From the IMG/VR virus record IMGVR_UViG_3300020411_000002: a DNA stretch of 64,000 nucleotides. One strand, 5' to 3'. The DNA comes from a virus (lineage: Duplodnaviria; Caudoviricetes). Position numbers and translations under genes: made by a program. This document shows, one piece after another, positions 19,175 to 37,396 of the stretch. The notes below the pieces were generated by a model. It was not told the DNA's origin. It did not search any database and was given only the letters and a program-made list of their open reading frames with translations. The stretch's first letter is position 1; every line of letters starts with the position of its first letter.

Positions 19175-19262
19175 AAGTACTCCTGCACTCAGTAATTTTA
19201 TAAAACTGTAAATACCACGTAATAATAGTAAATTAGCAAATTGCAAATCAAGGGGTTGCTCC

Positions 19263-22398: not shown

Positions 22399-22946
22399 GT
22401 CCTGTTCGTGTAATGCACCGAGTTATTCCAAGCATGGTAGACAACGGTAAAGTCTATCGCAATGATAACTTGGTGTTTGGATACTCGAATGGGCTTTACT
22501 ACAGAATTGTACTTACAGAAGAACCGTTCGGAACGCAGGACTGGATTGTAGAAACTATTGAAACAAGCAGTACAATGAGTTGTTTCAGAGAAGACGATTT
22601 AGAACTGACCCTTACTCCGTTCAATGTTAACTATGATTTTGATTTGGTACAGAAAGTTGCTGAGCCTGAAATTGGAACAGTAGAAGACGTAGACCGCGAC
22701 TTAATTATAGCACTAATGGAATACGGCTTTAGAGAAAGAATGGTATCTAACAGACTATCTTCTATCTCTGGCATGACGGTCTGCATGGGTGGAGTTGCTA
22801 AGTATCTAAGTTACTACTCTACTCTTCTTGATGATGCTGGAATAGAAGTTGAGTTTGAGAGTAGCTTTCTTACTATAGGTAAGAACGGTCTTGTTCTACA
22901 TTCTGGTATCGTTGATTCAAAAGATAAATTCTTTGTAAGACTATAA
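22392..22946 (+). CDS. Hypothetical protein
   Basis: 184-aa ORF followed by a terminator. Confidence 0.7.
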   Translation: MVSPVRVMHRVIPSMVDNGKVYRNDNLVFGYSNGLYYRIVLTEEPFGTQDWIVETIETSSTMSCFREDDLELTLTPFNVNYDFDLVQKVAEPEIGTVEDVDRDLIIALMEYGFRERMVSNRLSSISGMTVCMGGVAKYLSYYSTLLDDAGIEVEFESSFLTIGKNGLVLHSGIVDSKDKFFVRL

Positions 22947-22967
22947 GGGGGCTATGCTCCCTTTTTT
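22945..22967 (+). terminator. Rho-independent terminator
   Basis: AAGGGGG-CTATG-CTCCCTT stem-loop running into a T tract, directly after a stop codon. Confidence 0.75.
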
Positions 22968-23010
22968 AATGTCTGAGTTTCACGCTAATTTAAAAGCGTG
23001 GAGGTCATGA

Positions 23011-23916
23011 ATGGAAATAGAACAATTCTTAAAAAACGTTCTTGGATTCGAACCAATTTCTAACGTAGAGAAAGAACCTCATACGTTGCCTTTTTTGCCT
23101 AGCGGATTTTTCCAAGAGTTTGTTAGAGGGAAGTGGAGAATTAGAATCTTAGATACTCATTCGCTTGAAGATAGAGCGAAGATAGGTGTTATTGTTTTGG
23201 TAGATATAGGACTAAAACAGCACACCTTGTATAAGGGTTATATAAATCAGAACGATGGACTTTCTCAGTTTCGTCGTATGTTACAATCATGTACTGATTT
23301 ACTTGATAACCCTGATGATTATTCTTGTGAAAAAATAATTCTATCTCAGGATAATCCTAGCTTACATTCTAGTGCGTGTATTCACATGTACTACATTTGG
23401 AAATTTGATGACCTTCTTGCAAGTTCAATTCCATCCGGCTTTAATGTATTAATACCAGAAAACGTACCCTTTGATGATTGCATAGATTTCGTAAATGGAT
23501 ATCTTTTGAATCTAGGTGCGTCGCATATTGGAACTAAGACATATAAAGCTTTACCCAATTTCAACAAAAGTTATGCACAACATTTTAGAAGCGTAGGAGT
23601 CAACGTATTAGACTTAGACGAATCGGGTAGACTGGTACTTAATAAGGACACTATTAAGGACAAGATATACAAACTTAAAAATGTTGAGACTGCATACATA
23701 GTAAGATTCGCACTCAAAGCCATTCTAGAAAAGCGAACGGACTATGCTATAGAATTTCTAAAGGATGTAGGTTTAATCAAGGATATGATTATAAGTCGTA
23801 CCAAGCACAACACTGTGCGTATAGCTTTTATGAGTGTTAACTTTGGAGATATTGAGGTAGTAGGATGCTTGGATGAAATTCTCAAAAATATTCAAAGAAA
23901 GTTTGGTAAGTTATGA
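23011..23916 (+). CDS. Hypothetical protein
   Basis: 301-aa ORF with a GGAGG RBS. Confidence 0.7.
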   Translation: MEIEQFLKNVLGFEPISNVEKEPHTLPFLPSGFFQEFVRGKWRIRILDTHSLEDRAKIGVIVLVDIGLKQHTLYKGYINQNDGLSQFRRMLQSCTDLLDNPDDYSCEKIILSQDNPSLHSSACIHMYYIWKFDDLLASSIPSGFNVLIPENVPFDDCIDFVNGYLLNLGASHIGTKTYKALPNFNKSYAQHFRSVGVNVLDLDESGRLVLNKDTIKDKIYKLKNVETAYIVRFALKAILEKRTDYAIEFLKDVGLIKDMIISRTKHNTVRIAFMSVNFGDIEVVGCLDEILKNIQRKFGKL

Positions 23917-24143
23917 AAACAAAAGACCGTGTGTTTAACTGCATCAAAAGGCAGATGGGTAAGTCAGATATAAATCTTAGCACTGACTTGAAAAATGACC
24001 TCAAAGCAGACGACCTAGATTACATAGAACTGACTATGAGATTAGAGTCAGAGTTTGGTATTGCTATAGACGATGAAAAGTTTAGTACTTTGAAAACTGT
24101 AAATGATGTATATAGATACGTAACGGAACTTGCAGATGCTTAG
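23913..24143 (+). CDS. Acyl carrier protein homologue with the attachment Ser replaced by Asp
   Basis: DLKADDLDYIELTMRLESEFGIAIDDE...LKTVNDV aligns with E. coli AcpP [27 protein letters not shown]...ITTVQAA. Codons read GCA GAC GAC CTA GAT. Confidence 0.85.
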   Translation: MKTKDRVFNCIKRQMGKSDINLSTDLKNDLKADDLDYIELTMRLESEFGIAIDDEKFSTLKTVNDVYRYVTELADA

Positions 24144-24249
24144 GCAAATACCAGTAAAGGAGTTAGTGCTATTCGTAGTGCTTTCTCCCATTATCCTATT
24201 AGTCTTTCTTTACTGCTACGTTCGATTTAAAAATAAAAGTAGGGAATAA
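24136..24249 (+). CDS. 37-aa single-pass membrane protein (not in the ORF track)
   Basis: MLRQIPVKELVLFVVLSPIILLVFLYCYVRFKNKSRE. Fills the gap between the ACP homologue and the deaminase; overlaps the ACP stop and ends 2 nt before the next ATG. Confidence 0.55.
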   Translation: MLRQIPVKELVLFVVLSPIILLVFLYCYVRFKNKSRE

Positions 24250-25100: not shown

Positions 25101-25353
25101 AGCGCGTATTTCTGTCTATTTCGTAAAGCGTACATTTAGTCAGTATTACGATATTGAAGTAGGTGAGTACTTTATTAGTATTCACGGCAATTATCGAAAA
25201 GTAGAAGTGTTGAACTTAGACGATGCTTCTTTTAGAATCTTGTCCTCCACATCGGTTGATGTTACACGCATAGACAAAGAATACGTAGCAAGCGTACATG
25301 TCACTGTGGAACTATCGGATACCGGTTTAATAACAAAGCGAATAGTTGAATGA
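25084..25353 (+). CDS. Hypothetical protein
   Basis: 89-aa ORF overlapping its neighbours. Confidence 0.6.
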   Translation: MSITSEARISVYFVKRTFSQYYDIEVGEYFISIHGNYRKVEVLNLDDASFRILSSTSVDVTRIDKEYVASVHVTVELSDTGLITKRIVE

Positions 25354-25748
25354 TAAAATATGATTTAGAACCTTACTTTATTAACAGTACTTGGAGAGCA
25401 ATCGTTGATAACGGGCTTACTCCTTACATTACACTTGTCGTAGATGAACGTTGCAATGTTCCGCAAGAACACATCAAAGAGAAGAACGGTCTTCCTACGA
25501 TCACGTTTAACACAAGTCTTGTTGCTACTCCTAATATTGTGATGAACGATAAAGAAGAGTACATTACGTTTAGCGGTTCATTTAGCGGTCGTCGTATAGA
25601 TATTCAGTTTACGTATGACAACATCGTAGCAATCTACGCTAAAGAACTTAAAGACTTTGGCATAGTAGTGCCGTACACTCCTCCAAAGCAAGTTGAGCAA
25701 GAACAAGAACCAGAACGCGCTAAGCCTGTGCTGCAAGTGGTGAAGTAA
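25350..25748 (+). CDS. sspB: ClpXP adaptor SspB homologue
   Basis: PYFINSTWRAIVDNGLTPYI...VPQEH...ITFN...FSGSFSG...IVAIYAKE, plus C-terminal KPVLQVVK matching the E. coli SspB ClpX-binding tail RPALRVVK. Confidence 0.85.
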   Translation: MIKYDLEPYFINSTWRAIVDNGLTPYITLVVDERCNVPQEHIKEKNGLPTITFNTSLVATPNIVMNDKEEYITFSGSFSGRRIDIQFTYDNIVAIYAKELKDFGIVVPYTPPKQVEQEQEPERAKPVLQVVK

Positions 25749-26084: not shown

Positions 26085-27470
26085 ATGAAAAGTTTGGAAT
26101 TTGAATGTTCGGATTTTACCAAAGTATACACTACTACAGGTCTGTATCCTAAGTTCTCAATCTCTGTATTTCTAATGGATGCAGTTGACCTAGAACCAGG
26201 TCAAGTGTTTGAAGATATAAGAATCACTAATTCGTCTGGTACTTATGTCCAAGAAGGTTTCTTTAAACTTACTTCTGTTATGCAAGGTCCTAATACTCAT
26301 ATATTAGAGCTTTCCACTATGTCCTCGTCTGGTATTCTCAATGATGTAGATTGCCAGTACTTGAATGTTGCGCAAAAGATTTTAGACGAAGGTTATCACT
26401 CAGAAAACAGAACCAAAACAAACACGTACAAACTGTTTGGCGATGCGCAATTAAAGTTCGACTTACGTGAAGGTTTACCTGTTCTAACTACCAAGAACGT
26501 ATTAGTAGGTGCATTGAAGAAAGAACTGTGCTGGTTTAATCGTGGTGAGACTAACATCAAAACACTTGGTACTCCTATTTGGGACGAATGGGCAACTGAG
26601 TCTGGTGAGCTAGGTCCTGTCTATGGTGAGCAGTGGAGAGACTGGCTTGCTTGGCATGAAGTGCATGAATCACAAGTTGAGAAAATCAAGTTCTTAGAAG
26701 AGCAAGGTTACACTAAAGGTTATCAAATTGGTGGATTCCTTTTATTCCACAAGCGCATTGACCAACTCAATCAGTTAATTGAGAACATCAAGAACGATCC
26801 AAACAATCGTCGAATGATTGTTTCTGCTTGGAATCCTACTGTAGACCCAGACACTAAGCTCACACCAAACAAGAACGCTGAACTTGGTATGCAAGCGCTG
26901 CCACCTTGTCATACATTATGGCAAGTAGGTTGCACTAAAATAGCTAACGTATATGATCGCGAAAAAGAATGGATTCGCCTTGAAGCTATTAAGAACATGC
27001 ATGAAATGGGCATCTATTATGATGAAGCGTATGTTATAGCTAACAACCAATGGGTACTATTTGTATCGGATACTGCGGTGCGTCTGGATGAACGTAACGA
27101 TGAAATAATATTAACAGAAGCATTGGATTCAGTAAACGCACCTGACTACTATCTAGACTTAAAGCTTTATCAGCGTAGTGCAGATTGGTTCTTGGGCGTA
27201 CCGTTTAATATAGCTAGCTACGCTATGCAGGCTGAAATACTTGCCGCTCATACAGGCACTGTAGCTCGTAACTTCTATCATTCGTTTGGTGATTTCCACA
27301 TTTACGAAAACCATGTTGACCAGTTACGAACTCAGATAGAGCAACCGCACAAAGCACTTCCGCGTTGCTACATTGAAAAGCAAAAAGACATTGCGCACTA
27401 TCTGCCAGAGCATATTCATGTACTTGGATATGAAGGCGGTATCAAACTAACAGGGGACGTTGCCGTATGA
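26085..27470 (+). CDS. thyA: Thymidylate synthase with an N-terminal extension and insertions
   Basis: LPVLTTK, ELCWF.RGETN, IWDEWA, LGPVYG.QWR, RRMIVSAWNP, ALPPCH, YQRSADWFLGVPFNIASYA, GDFHIYENH. Confidence 0.95.
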   Translation: MKSLEFECSDFTKVYTTTGLYPKFSISVFLMDAVDLEPGQVFEDIRITNSSGTYVQEGFFKLTSVMQGPNTHILELSTMSSSGILNDVDCQYLNVAQKILDEGYHSENRTKTNTYKLFGDAQLKFDLREGLPVLTTKNVLVGALKKELCWFNRGETNIKTLGTPIWDEWATESGELGPVYGEQWRDWLAWHEVHESQVEKIKFLEEQGYTKGYQIGGFLLFHKRIDQLNQLIENIKNDPNNRRMIVSAWNPTVDPDTKLTPNKNAELGMQALPPCHTLWQVGCTKIANVYDREKEWIRLEAIKNMHEMGIYYDEAYVIANNQWVLFVSDTAVRLDERNDEIILTEALDSVNAPDYYLDLKLYQRSADWFLGVPFNIASYAMQAEILAAHTGTVARNFYHSFGDFHIYENHVDQLRTQIEQPHKALPRCYIEKQKDIAHYLPEHIHVLGYEGGIKLTGDVAV

Positions 27471-31395: not shown

Positions 31396-33450
31396 TTAAA
31401 TCAAACGTTCAGTTCCATCAAGACTGTATACGTACTTCACTGACTCTGCTCCTGTACCTTTCCGTCCACGTACTAAACGTACCAACACTTCACCTTTAGG
31501 AATATCTAAGCCAACAATCTCAACTGGCAAATATGCAGAGCCTGTTTTGATTGAGTACATCGGTGCATTTTGTACTAATACTTTGGACTGTATTAGTTCG
31601 TTACTTAGCTTGTTAAGTTGTCGCTCTAGCTTAGTAATCTCAGCACTTGTACGGGCATCCTTTTCCTTAGATGACATATTCTTTAAGCGCTCAATCTCAT
31701 TATACAAATGGGTGTATTCAGATGTACCAGAGTTTCTACGCTTTGAGTTTCTCCAATATTCAAGAAGCTTCAATGCGCGTTCTTGTTTATCGGCTGGATA
31801 CGGTTTAAGTAGTAAAGCAACTTGCACTGTCAGACCTTTGTTAGCGTCTAGTACAACTTTGCCTTTAATTCCTTTTCCGTATGTATTCTGTAATCGCTCA
31901 ATGAATAGCTCAGCTTCGTTCTTGTACTTACGGCTTACTGTAGAGTTTTTAAGAATAAGAACAGGCTTACCTTTACTATTAGCGAACCCTGTCTTAGATA
32001 CGTTATTACTCTTCTTAAAGATGCCAGTAAATTTACCATCAAGAACTGTTAGCTTTTCAATCTCTTGAAGTACTGCTTTCTCGTTGCCTGGGAATATAGG
32101 TTCTTCTGGTTTTACTGTGCTATCGTCGTAATGAGGAACTTGAATTGTTTCATCGTACATTACAACACCGTCTGGAACGTAACGTTTATCTTGGATAACA
32201 CCTTTTGCTTTAAGACGCATAGCGTGGGGTGTAGAAAGATAAGAAATCTTTTTGTTGCGCACTTTATTCAAGAAGCTTTCTATCTCGCCGCGCTTAAACT
32301 TGTATATTGTAGCAGGGCTGCCAGAGGCATCAGACATAAACTTGTCTAGTGCTATACGTGCAGTAGTTACGTTAAGGCCTTGAACTATGGCAATTTTGTC
32401 ACTATGTAATGATTGCTTATAGAAACCTAAGAACACGTTACCAGTAAGAGCTTCTGCACTAATAGAATGCATACCAGTTAAGTGTAGATTCTTAGTATAA
32501 GCAGGGTCTTTAACCTTAGAGCTAATAGAACCTTCCAAGAAATCTAACGGGTCAATAACAGATGTAGATACCGATTCAGCAAATACTTTAGCGGCTTCCA
32601 TTGCTTCGTCTTCTGATGCAATAGTATATTCACCTCTTCCACGCGGTACAAATTCTTCATGATGTAGATCGTCAGAGCTAATCTTGAACTTGAAGCCGTT
32701 GTCTGTGTCGTCAACTATTAGCACTTTAGATTTGTCCCAAAAGTTTTGAACTTTCTCTATAGCAGCTTCTTTGGTATCTGGTAGATAAGCAATATCGCCT
32801 TGTTTGACAGTATCGCCCTCACCAAATCCATGCAACGCACGATGCGACCAACCATACCACTTACCATCTTTTCCTTTACCGATAGTACAGATGTTTGCGT
32901 TAGGTTTAGCAGGTTGTGGATAGATACCACACTCTTCACACAAGAACTTAGCGTCTTCTGGTGAACCAATGTAATGACCATCTGCATTATAAGCAGAGCG
33001 AAGAACTACAGGCTCGTTCAGGTCAGAAATCATTACTGATTCTTCCGCACTGATGTAGTAACCGTGGTCTTTCAGCATTGTAGAGTCACGCGATATCTCA
33101 CGCTTTAAAAGATTGTAGTCGTTGGTAAACTGGAAACCGTCGTCTAGCATTTGCTTTATTTCACTGCTATATCGAGGTTCAACAGGAGATTCTTCGTTGT
33201 CTTCCCAATTAGAGTAAAGACGCGTAGGCTCCCATTGCCAGTTCTGCCATTTCTTACCGATTTTTGTACCATCACCTATTGGTGCAATGTTCTGCTCTTC
33301 ATACATTGCGTCTTCACGTTCAATAGTAGATACCAAAGATACAGACTTAACACCTGTTTGTGAGGCATAATCAAAAGCGTATAGACGGCGATTGATTCCA
33401 GCTAGCGATGCAGAAGTTGCTTCACTTACTATAAGATTTAAAGTATCCAT
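31396..33450 (-). CDS. 684-aa mosaic hypothetical protein, possibly virion-packaged
   Basis: Several apparent modules, including WYGWSHRALHGFGEGD; basic C-terminal half; AAGGA RBS. Confidence 0.65.
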   Translation of the reverse strand: MDTLNLIVSEATSASLAGINRRLYAFDYASQTGVKSVSLVSTIEREDAMYEEQNIAPIGDGTKIGKKWQNWQWEPTRLYSNWEDNEESPVEPRYSSEIKQMLDDGFQFTNDYNLLKREISRDSTMLKDHGYYISAEESVMISDLNEPVVLRSAYNADGHYIGSPEDAKFLCEECGIYPQPAKPNANICTIGKGKDGKWYGWSHRALHGFGEGDTVKQGDIAYLPDTKEAAIEKVQNFWDKSKVLIVDDTDNGFKFKISSDDLHHEEFVPRGRGEYTIASEDEAMEAAKVFAESVSTSVIDPLDFLEGSISSKVKDPAYTKNLHLTGMHSISAEALTGNVFLGFYKQSLHSDKIAIVQGLNVTTARIALDKFMSDASGSPATIYKFKRGEIESFLNKVRNKKISYLSTPHAMRLKAKGVIQDKRYVPDGVVMYDETIQVPHYDDSTVKPEEPIFPGNEKAVLQEIEKLTVLDGKFTGIFKKSNNVSKTGFANSKGKPVLILKNSTVSRKYKNEAELFIERLQNTYGKGIKGKVVLDANKGLTVQVALLLKPYPADKQERALKLLEYWRNSKRRNSGTSEYTHLYNEIERLKNMSSKEKDARTSAEITKLERQLNKLSNELIQSKVLVQNAPMYSIKTGSAYLPVEIVGLDIPKGEVLVRLVRGRKGTGAESVKYVYSLDGTERLI

Positions 33451-35418: not shown

Positions 35419-35763
35419 CTACCATAGATCATTCAGTGCCCAATAAGCAGCCTGAAACTTATCTTTATATGCTAGCTTACCGTCTTTTGTTTTGATGCCC
35501 ATGTGGCGCTTACGATAGTTATCTCTACGCTTTTTATCTTTATGCGTAGTATAGTCTTCGTAGTCCTTATGTCCGTACTTAACTAACTTAAACTGATTTC
35601 CTTTCTTAGCAAGCACACATCGTTTGTGTCTGCTGTCAGTAGGATTATCTATTGGTTTGTTCCAGCCGGGAAAAGTCATTCCACGATACTTTAGCTTACC
35701 GTTTTCTTTTTCTACCTTTTCTATGGGCTGGCTTGTTGCTGATAGACTTACTAGTATCTTCAT
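35419..35763 (-). CDS. Small basic protein (K.V.FG...YED.T.HKD..RR..Y..RH family, DUF5754-like)
   Basis: KLVKYGHKDYEDYTTHKDKKRRDNYRKRHMGI...AAYWALNDLW. The family name is recalled from memory, not searched. Confidence 0.55.
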   Translation of the reverse strand: MKILVSLSATSQPIEKVEKENGKLKYRGMTFPGWNKPIDNPTDSRHKRCVLAKKGNQFKLVKYGHKDYEDYTTHKDKKRRDNYRKRHMGIKTKDGKLAYKDKFQAAYWALNDLW

Positions 35764-36502
35764 AGATAGATTCTCTGTTCTGGACTTTCTGAATACGCAT
35801 CTGTATCTCAGGGTCTTTAAGTCGGTCTTTGAAACTACTTTTGGGAAACTTCTTTAAGTACTTTTCTTTTTCGTGAGGGTCAAACTCGTACAAGAATGTA
35901 TGCTCAGAAACACTTGCATCAAAGTGGTAAGTGTCTTGAAGATAGACACTGCCTCTACTGGGCTTTAAGTTAGCAACACATAAACCACCACGCCATGCTA
36001 ACTTGGTAATTAACCATCGTCTGTTCTTACCTGTTACTTTGCGCTTACGTGCTGGAACTCTATTTGTAAGCCAAACTCTAAGTCTCTTCTTACCATTCTC
36101 TACCGTAACATCAGGTTCTTTTTGTTTACCAGTTACAGGGTCTTTAAAGTTGCAGCATAGTGTAAGCAATCCCACTTTATGTTTCTTACATTCGTCTACA
36201 ATGAACTGACCTTTATCTGAATCATATAACCATTCTGGAATACAGAAATACATTTTGTTGCAGTAGTCTAGGTATGTGTGCCACTTGGTATCTGTAGCAA
36301 AGTCTTCCCAACAGCTTTTTATTTCTGTTATTATGATTTCACCTTTCATACTGAACGCAACTAAATCGGCGCGACTGCCTTTGTTTTTGCTTATGCCTAC
36401 TTCTTCGTATAGACTGTAGTTCTTATCTGCAAAGTACCTGACACACGCTTCGGTCGACCTTGCAGTTATTTCTTTTCTTCCAAATGTTTTTTGAACACTC
36501 AT
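35696..36502 (-). CDS. MmcB-like PD-(D/E)xK endonuclease
   Basis: RADLVAF..KGEIIITEIKSCWEDF.TD.KW..YLDYCNKMYF, characteristic of the MmcB family; Arg/Lys-rich tail. Confidence 0.75.
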   Translation of the reverse strand: MSVQKTFGRKEITARSTEACVRYFADKNYSLYEEVGISKNKGSRADLVAFSMKGEIIITEIKSCWEDFATDTKWHTYLDYCNKMYFCIPEWLYDSDKGQFIVDECKKHKVGLLTLCCNFKDPVTGKQKEPDVTVENGKKRLRVWLTNRVPARKRKVTGKNRRWLITKLAWRGGLCVANLKPSRGSVYLQDTYHFDASVSEHTFLYEFDPHEKEKYLKKFPKSSFKDRLKDPEIQMRIQKVQNRESIYEDTSKSISNKPAHRKGRKRKR

Positions 36503-36952: not shown

Positions 36953-37396
36953 TCAGTCCTCTTGAATAGGTTCTATATATTCACCAGCAAGCTCTAGTTT
37001 AAAATTAGCTAAATCCATTTCTAGGAATTTTTTCTTTTCTTCACTAGTTGGTTGATACTTGATAGAAATGTGTGGGCTGAACTCAGGATAAGAGTGTCTA
37101 AGTTTATAGACTTTCTTTAACGCTTCGTGTCTGCGTGAAAGAGCAGGTGCGTCTAGCTTTAAAACCAATGCTTCCCACTTATCGCCAGCTTTACCGAATA
37201 CGTCTTTACCTGTTACAGTAGCTTTGAAAGTTCTGTAAGGTGCAGGGGTAAACTTGTGATGTACATCATCTTCAGGAGCGTAAATAATTGTTGCATGTAA
37301 ATCATCAATCATTCTTGTGAAGTGTGCGCGGAATAAGTTTCTCAATTGCGCTTCGCTTTCAGGTGTAAGCCTAATACCTATATAAGTTCCAATCAT
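36953..37396 (-). CDS. acb1: Anti-CBASS 2H phosphodiesterase, Acb1 (T4 gp57B)-like
   Basis: TYIGIRL, LHATIIY, LVLKLD...L..RH, HSYPEFSPHISIKY and GEYIEP follow T4 Acb1 (LYVAAKF, IHSTICY, LVLVLD..YL..RH, HDFDDYTPHITLSY, REYKEP); similar length. Confidence 0.8.
   Translation of the reverse strand: MIGTYIGIRLTPESEAQLRNLFRAHFTRMIDDLHATIIYAPEDDVHHKFTPAPYRTFKATVTGKDVFGKAGDKWEALVLKLDAPALSRRHEALKKVYKLRHSYPEFSPHISIKYQPTSEEKKKFLEMDLANFKLELAGEYIEPIQED

Follow-up and report, generated by a model that had tools for sequence, protein, structure and literature searches.

A conserved acyl-carrier-protein look-alike without the acceptor serine in marine jumbo phages related to Phage NCTB, with an orphan gene product as candidate partner

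What does a phage do with an acyl carrier protein (ACP) that has no serine at the position where phosphopantetheine is attached? The question is raised by a gene at 23913–24143 of a 64,000-nucleotide stretch of phage DNA (IMG/VR record IMGVR_UViG_3300020411_000002; Caudoviricetes), which we call the window. The features at and around this gene are as follows.

22945..22963, + strand: terminator-like GC hairpin followed by a T-run (consensus scan), dividing the upstream genes from the unit of ORF301 and the ACP-like gene
23001..23005, + strand: GGAGG Shine–Dalgarno sequence, 5 nt ahead of the ORF301 ATG
23011..23916, + strand: ORF301, a conserved orphan of 301 aa, whose stop overlaps the start of the ACP-like gene (ATGA)
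23913..24143, + strand: serine-less ACP look-alike, ATG start, 76 aa (PF00550, PDB, AlphaFold2, Foldseek)
24012..24014, + strand: codon 34, GAC (Asp), at the phosphopantetheine-Ser position; residue 1 of helix II
24136..24249, + strand: ORF of 37 aa for a single-pass membrane peptide with a basic tail (ATG at 24136; sequence reading)

A preliminary description, made from the sequence alone, had read the protein as a full-length ACP homologue that keeps the acidic helix II, and family searches, PDB alignments and modelling all bear this out. PF00550 (PP-binding) matched the protein over profile positions 2–67 of 67 with E = 2.2e-10, and the score of 41.1 bits, above the Pfam gathering cut-off of 20.8 bits, places it in this superfamily. 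PHROG 5934 ('acyl carrier protein') matched with E = 2.2e-15, and solved bacterial ACPs among the PDB sequences aligned with it from end to end (best 2lol, E = 7.6e-11). The AlphaFold2 model, built from 13 aligned sequences, had a mean pLDDT of 95 and contained helices at residues 3–15, 34–48, 54–57 and 63–75. Foldseek searches with this model retrieved type II FAS ACPs (TM 0.85–0.90, rmsd 1.0–1.3 Å). The model and these matches agree on the four-helix ACP fold, in which helix II has the attachment site at its N terminus, and Asp34 opens that helix at the position of E. coli Ser36.

In alignments to solved ACPs, the canonical A-D-S-L-D corresponds to A32-D33-D34-L35-D36 of the window protein, so that Asp34 stands where a functional AcpP has the serine of its D-S-L motif. 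The GAC codon lies two substitutions away from every Ser codon. A single-base error had been discounted on this ground, and we found a protein of identical sequence on 201 contigs, the longest 244 kb, including Tara Oceans scaffolds of 208–241 kb. These observations confirm that the window protein is an AcpP-type ACP homologue without the acceptor Ser.

The protein scored just below the models that define AcpP itself: 55.6 bits with TIGR00517 (equivalog cut-off 70.45) and 65.9 bits with NF002148 (cut-off 71). By comparison, protein P0017 passed TIGR00517 at 82.1 bits, and its gene is placed fabG–acpP–fabF on a Tara Oceans contig, which identifies it as a bacterial AcpP. The window protein shares 51–54% identity with P0017 and 46–54% with AcpP-type ACPs in general. 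The acidic residues of helix II are present (D33, D36, E39, E45 and E47), but the overall picture of a typical ACP has to be amended: the net charge of the window protein is −4 and that of its orthologues −7 to −11, compared with a median of −12 for 66 Ser-bearing single-domain ACP matches. A tblastn search of the window with six ACP queries revealed no further ACP gene, and the Pfam families of fab genes and phosphopantetheinyl transferases were absent from the window ORFs scanned.

The residue at the Ser site and its codon could be read in syntenic orthologues from four lineages of NCTB-like jumbo phages.

Window lineage: Asp, codon GAC
Six close relatives, 83–87% identity to the window protein: Glu, codon GAA (read in contigs L012 and L013)
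P0112, on the 250-kb contig L006, 44% identity: Glu, codon GAA
P0081, on the 182-kb contig L008, 36% identity: Asp, codon GAT
Phage NCTB (P0025), 41% identity: Asn, codon AAT

The site is Asp, Glu or Asn and never Ser, and the codons for these residues are interconnected by single-base steps. The reading frame has stayed intact over lineages that share only 36–44% identity, and about 13–14 alignment columns are invariant over the four lineages, including A32, D33, L35, D36, E39, M42 and E45. Among close relatives, the pairwise dN/dS of the gene was 0.12–0.18 at dS 0.3–0.6. The loss of the Ser is thus fixed and under purifying selection, and a sequencing artefact is excluded. The preliminary description had proposed that its reading would fall if all relatives kept Ser and the allele were unique; the D, E and N of the orthologues and the 201 contigs show otherwise. 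Loss of the serine together with retention under selection is also the combination that marks a non-carrier ACP of the Plasmodium mitochondrial type. Ser, Thr, Asp and Asn are all good helix N-cap residues, and Asp, Glu and Asn are each compatible with a helix N terminus. Because both Asp and Asn are good N-caps, their presence at the site is equally explained by preservation of the fold. Elsewhere in the protein, all four lineages share Cys10 in helix I (window 23940–23942), a position occupied in most ACPs by Ile, Val or Leu.

The strongest contextual clue, which was absent from the preliminary description, is the coupling of the ACP-like gene to ORF301. No ribosome site comparable to that of ORF301 precedes the ACP-like gene, and the 4-nt ATGA junction (ttATGA) is identical in four lineages (contigs L006, L008, L010 and L012). 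In all four the upstream gene encodes 300–310 aa, whereas the genes that flank the pair differ between lineages. ATGA overlaps are frequent across the operon in the window, so the overlap alone is weak evidence, and it is the conserved adjacency across lineages that carries the argument. ORF301 has a dN/dS of 0.08–0.09, indicating purifying selection stronger than that on the ACP-like gene.

The ORF301 family proved to be confined to NCTB-like phages, in which homologues share 40–90% identity; a profile search of 5.8 billion proteins gave no homologue outside these lineages, and among cultured phages the only match was in Phage NCTB. ORF301 matched no Pfam or PHROG family and, in a profile search, no PDB sequence. 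Its AlphaFold2 model, from a 7-row alignment, reached a pLDDT of 62.9; Foldseek found no match to this model in the PDB at E ≤ 0.001, and the best Z of a wide VIA-align comparison, 6.1, falls inside the tool's stated noise range. The family alignment contains invariant Cys, His, Asp and Glu residues. A match to TIGR04424 ('McbB family') scored 24 bits against a cut-off of 65 and was obtained for just 5 of the 8 family members scanned; we take it as no more than a lead. Co-folding of ORF301 with the ACP-like protein gave scores of 0.00, 0.32 and 0.00, which speak neither for nor against binding.

Downstream, the ORF for the 37-aa membrane peptide overlaps the stop of the ACP-like gene by 8 nt and ends 2 nt short of the dCMP deaminase gene. 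Hydrophobic peptides are also encoded directly 5′ of the dCMP deaminase gene in L012, L013, L006 and Phage NCTB. This ORF is probably a real, unannotated gene, and it may be part of the same coupled string as ORF301 and the ACP-like gene.

The genes around the pair include gp25-like and PAAR baseplate genes and those for a dCMP deaminase, an SspB-like protein, a long thymidylate synthase, a DHH phosphoesterase and a thymidylate kinase. The sole cultured or deposited relative is Phage NCTB (LT598654, 258 kb), in which the ORF301 homologue has 40% identity; NCTB has been grouped with the Pseudomonas phages PaBG and Lu11 (PMC7412058). The source of the window, which has a G+C content of 39%, is an abundant, uncultured marine jumbo myovirus related to NCTB. 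Contigs 100% identical to positions 22805–23491, 23616–23928 and 23841–24154 occur in two marine metatranscriptome libraries; they show presence in RNA libraries, not transcription, and DNA carry-over is possible.

A block on the − strand adjoining the operon of the ACP-like gene encodes a 684-aa protein with a Tad6 (type I Thoeris inhibitor) domain (31396–33450), an MmcB-like protein (35696–36502) and an Acb1-like anti-CBASS protein (36953–37396). On the + strand, the thymidylate synthase homologue (26085–27470) is 461 aa long, about 90 of them in an N-terminal extension, and aligns with solved enzymes in two separate segments, so that an internal insert is implied; just 5′ of it lies the gene for an SspB-like ClpX adaptor homologue (25350–25748). 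The octamer TGTAAATA stands at 19207–19214 (+), just 5′ of the first gene of the + strand block (19263); with 7 copies in the window against 5.1 expected, it is not above chance.

In two of the lineages, the dCMP deaminase gene is followed by the gene for another small ACP, which keeps its Ser (C-D-S-L-D in Phage NCTB and M-D-S-L-S in L006). The copies are located as follows.

L010:5977-6231 (LT598654 about 118343-118597): serine-less orthologue of Phage NCTB, with Asn; unannotated in GenBank
L010:7579-7827: Ser-keeping ACP of Phage NCTB, BN7874_152
L006:9481-9738: Ser-keeping paralogue of L006

With TIGR00517, the Ser-bearing paralogues P0165 and P0163 scored 23.1 and 21.9 bits, so that the serine-less window protein, by this measure, is much nearer to housekeeping AcpP than they are. 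We detected no PF01648 phosphopantetheinyl transferase in the NCTB genome. The pair of paralogues in NCTB and L006 fits an arrangement of one carrier copy and one non-carrier copy.

A search for recurrent Ser loss among phage ACPs, which the preliminary description had put forward as a check, was positive beyond the orthologues. We scanned IMG/VR with a pattern that accepted S, E or D at the site and ranked the hits against the Asp query. Of the 80 confirmed loci that this yielded, 71 carry Ser and 8 carry Glu; the single Asp locus is the fragment of the window itself. With that fragment left out, the serine-less share is 8 of 79 loci, a figure that was likewise ranked against an Asp query and is less biased than the list of representative matches, where D or E occurred in 33 of 196 domains among the top 150, a count inflated by the Asp query. 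Seven of the eight Glu loci lie on unrelated contigs of 31–66% G+C with varied neighbours and no adjacent ORF301. We also sampled cultured phages: of 13 proteins that are annotated as ACP or resemble one, 11 have Ser at the site. The other two are MAM_092 of Serratia phage phiMAM1 (Ackermannviridae), annotated 'acyl carrier protein', with Glu in F-D-E-L-D (L101:1465-1737), and Lu11_0346 of Pseudomonas phage Lu11, a 140-aa 'hypothetical protein' with V-D-D-L-D in a C-terminal ACP domain (L100:2240-2662). We found no ORF301 homologue beside the Lu11 gene. Altogether, Glu or Asp occupied the site in 20 of the 22 serine-less sequences that we collected; the exceptions were Asn in NCTB and Gln in one metagenomic relative. 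A literature search found no paper on serine-less phage ACPs, which is not proof of absence.

One of these loci may point to a functional connection. At L062:2354-3216, on a 235-kb viral contig, a Ser-to-Glu ACP of 96 aa overlaps by 4 nt a MESH1/HDDC3-like gene that matches small alarmone (p)ppGpp hydrolases at E values of 1e-8 to 1e-7 (PDB 3nr1, E = 1.3e-8; 5vxa; 6z3o). Contact between ACP and SpoT is known, and to judge from the gene order and these matches, the pair is possibly a phage version of that connection. A search of NCTB for HD_4 (SpoT-type hydrolase) gave no match, but its negative outcome carries no weight, as the same search also missed the weak case of L062.

A tree of 122 ACP domains, computed with the site masked, was not resolved well enough for the origins of Ser loss to be counted; the best tree had 16 changes and well-supported branches force at least 2, while a single serine-less clade of these domains was not rejected by the AU test (p = 0.24). 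Some metagenomic ACP-like proteins (P0067, P0100, P0150 and P0152; P0008, P0009, P0016 and P0131) have N termini that by eye resemble signal peptides or lipoprotein signals. In some of them the Ser position is D, E or N; others contain two or three ACP repeats, some with Ser and some without; from their sequences, they are apparently exported ACP-fold proteins.

We propose the following explanation. The protein is AcpP-derived and folds into four helices; with Asp (Glu or Asn in the orthologues) in place of the acceptor Ser, it should be unable to receive 4′-phosphopantetheine at the canonical position and could therefore carry no acyl group there. It would work through protein–protein contacts of the helix II face A-D-[DEN]-L-D-x-x-E-x-x-M-x-x-E. 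That it works by binding rather than by carrying is, in our judgement, probable. The coupling of the gene to a conserved orphan of 300–310 aa in every lineage suggests a partner encoded by the phage itself, and the likeliest immediate partner would be the ORF301 product, which we infer to bind the look-alike: the two appear to be translated as a coupled pair, given the ATGA junction and the missing ribosome site, and they have been inherited together in four lineages. The pair may act on host physiology or defence, as its place in a nucleotide-metabolism block beside anti-defence genes hints. For the combined statement, a non-carrier, binding ACP look-alike with ORF301 as its partner, the sequence data incline us only slightly in favour. 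Against a dependence on ORF301 stand the serine-less copies of Lu11, phiMAM1 and seven IMG/VR loci, all without an adjacent ORF301; a function common to all serine-less copies, if there is one, cannot depend on ORF301.

A different target is possible, although we regard it as somewhat unlikely: the protein may be a decoy of host ACP that docks on AcpS, Fab enzymes, PlsB/PlsX, LpxA/D, SpoT, IscS or MukB and, being unloadable, blocks or rewires them independently of ORF301. Such a mimic is expected to resemble AcpP, and the window protein does so, both in its identity of 46–54% to AcpP-type ACPs (51–54% to P0017) and in scores that fall just below the AcpP equivalog cut-offs and far above those of the phage Ser-bearing paralogues, a result that counts against our main reading. 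Serine-less copies recur in unrelated phages with varied neighbours, the L062 copy is coupled to a Mesh1/small-alarmone-hydrolase-like gene in a way that recalls the ACP–SpoT contact, and Tad6-like and Acb1-like anti-defence genes lie nearby. Residues D35 and D38 of E. coli ACP are needed for IscS binding (PMC13343975), and the corresponding D33 and D36 are both kept. The same work, however, found that the ACP variant S36T, which lacks the prosthetic group, fails to bind IscS (PMC13343975). In addition, ACP clients read negative charge, of which the window protein has lost a large part (−4 versus a median of −12), and a decoy leaves the conserved coupling to ORF301 without explanation. The partnership with ORF301 and mimicry of host ACP are compatible with each other, since the look-alike could direct ORF301, as an effector, to host proteins that bind ACP.

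The preliminary description had also suggested that the Asp may mimic a phosphate, in which case the carboxylate at position 34 would imitate the phosphodiester and clients would read the protein as holo-ACP. The prevalence of Glu and Asp, in 20 of the 22 collected sequences and in all eight serine-less IMG/VR loci beyond the window fragment, is in line with this idea. It was weakened by the uncharged Asn of the NCTB orthologue, which argues against an obligatory phosphate mimic, and by the Gln of one metagenomic relative. The D/N/E pattern also fits simple helix N-capping, and the phosphopantetheine arm, roughly 2 nm long, is bound by several ACP clients and cannot be replaced for them by a single carboxylate. 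We consider such mimicry improbable. More improbable still is that the protein remains a carrier, loaded at a non-canonical residue such as the helix I Cys or by a phage enzyme such as ORF301. The four lineages do share Cys10, and the invariant Cys, His, Asp and Glu of ORF301 could form an active site, but the helix I position is usually hydrophobic (I, V or L in most matches), PF01648 was not found in Phage NCTB and ORF301 matches no enzyme family. We know of no precedent for ACP loading at a non-canonical residue. That the gene is a decaying, functionless relic of a phage ACP is hardly credible: nothing beyond the loss of the Ser speaks for it, and its conservation already contradicts it, with a dN/dS of 0.12–0.18, a frame kept intact at 36–44% identity, a model pLDDT of 95 and 201 contigs.

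The serine-less gene is a real, conserved feature, and both this clade-level example of a serine-less phage ACP look-alike and its candidate partner are new. ACP is among the most connected bacterial proteins, which makes an ACP-fold phage protein that cannot be loaded a natural probe of that network and a plausible new route of host takeover. For serine-less copies, the database label 'acyl carrier protein', or lipid auxiliary metabolic gene, is probably wrong. The present case adds a new clade, the NCTB-related jumbo phages, which are marine, abundant and uncultured; a contrast within the family, as two lineages have a Ser-bearing paralogue beside the serine-less copy; and a concrete candidate partner, ORF301, which makes function testable. 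The Ser-to-Glu copy of L062 with its (p)ppGpp-hydrolase-like gene is a second testable lead. More broadly, serine-less phage ACP look-alikes might form a widespread, unrecognised class of host-takeover proteins that seize or silence ACP-regulated hubs through the docking surface, with SpoT-type (p)ppGpp hydrolases, IscS, MukB-like SMC proteins, PlsB and LpxA as candidate hubs and the present protein as the targeting subunit of a two-protein effector with ORF301; we think this generalization unlikely in its full form.

Among known proteins, the closest functional parallel is the mitochondrial ACP of Plasmodium falciparum, which has no prosthetic group and is an essential binding subunit of Isd11–Nfs1 (PMC8547962). 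In both cases the prosthetic-group site has been lost and the protein retained, and the Plasmodium protein functions by binding alone. By contrast, the Plasmodium protein is eukaryotic and organellar and has the LYR protein Isd11 with Nfs1 as its partner, whereas no LYR-type partner is evident in the phage. In MAM_092 of phiMAM1 and Lu11_0346, too, a phage ACP domain has Glu or Asp in place of the Ser; these proteins have other neighbours and no ORF301 homologue, and the Lu11 copy is a C-terminal domain. The ACPs of Prochlorococcus phage P-HM1, Ralstonia phage RSL1 and Cronobacter phage GAP32 belong to the same families (PF00550, PHROG 5934) but keep DSL and are possibly real carriers. Bacterial AcpP (PF00550; TIGR00517; PDB 1l0h, 2ehs and 1hy8) has the same length and four-helix fold (rmsd about 1.0–1.3 Å), shares up to 54% identity (marine bacterial AcpP) and has the helix II docking motif D-x-L-D-x-x-E-L-x-M-x-L-E that the window protein keeps. 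The window protein differs from it in having Asp (Glu, Asp or Asn in the orthologues) in place of the acceptor Ser, and hence no canonical site for phosphopantetheinylation, in its sub-equivalog score and lower acidity, and in adjoining a phage orphan gene rather than fab genes.
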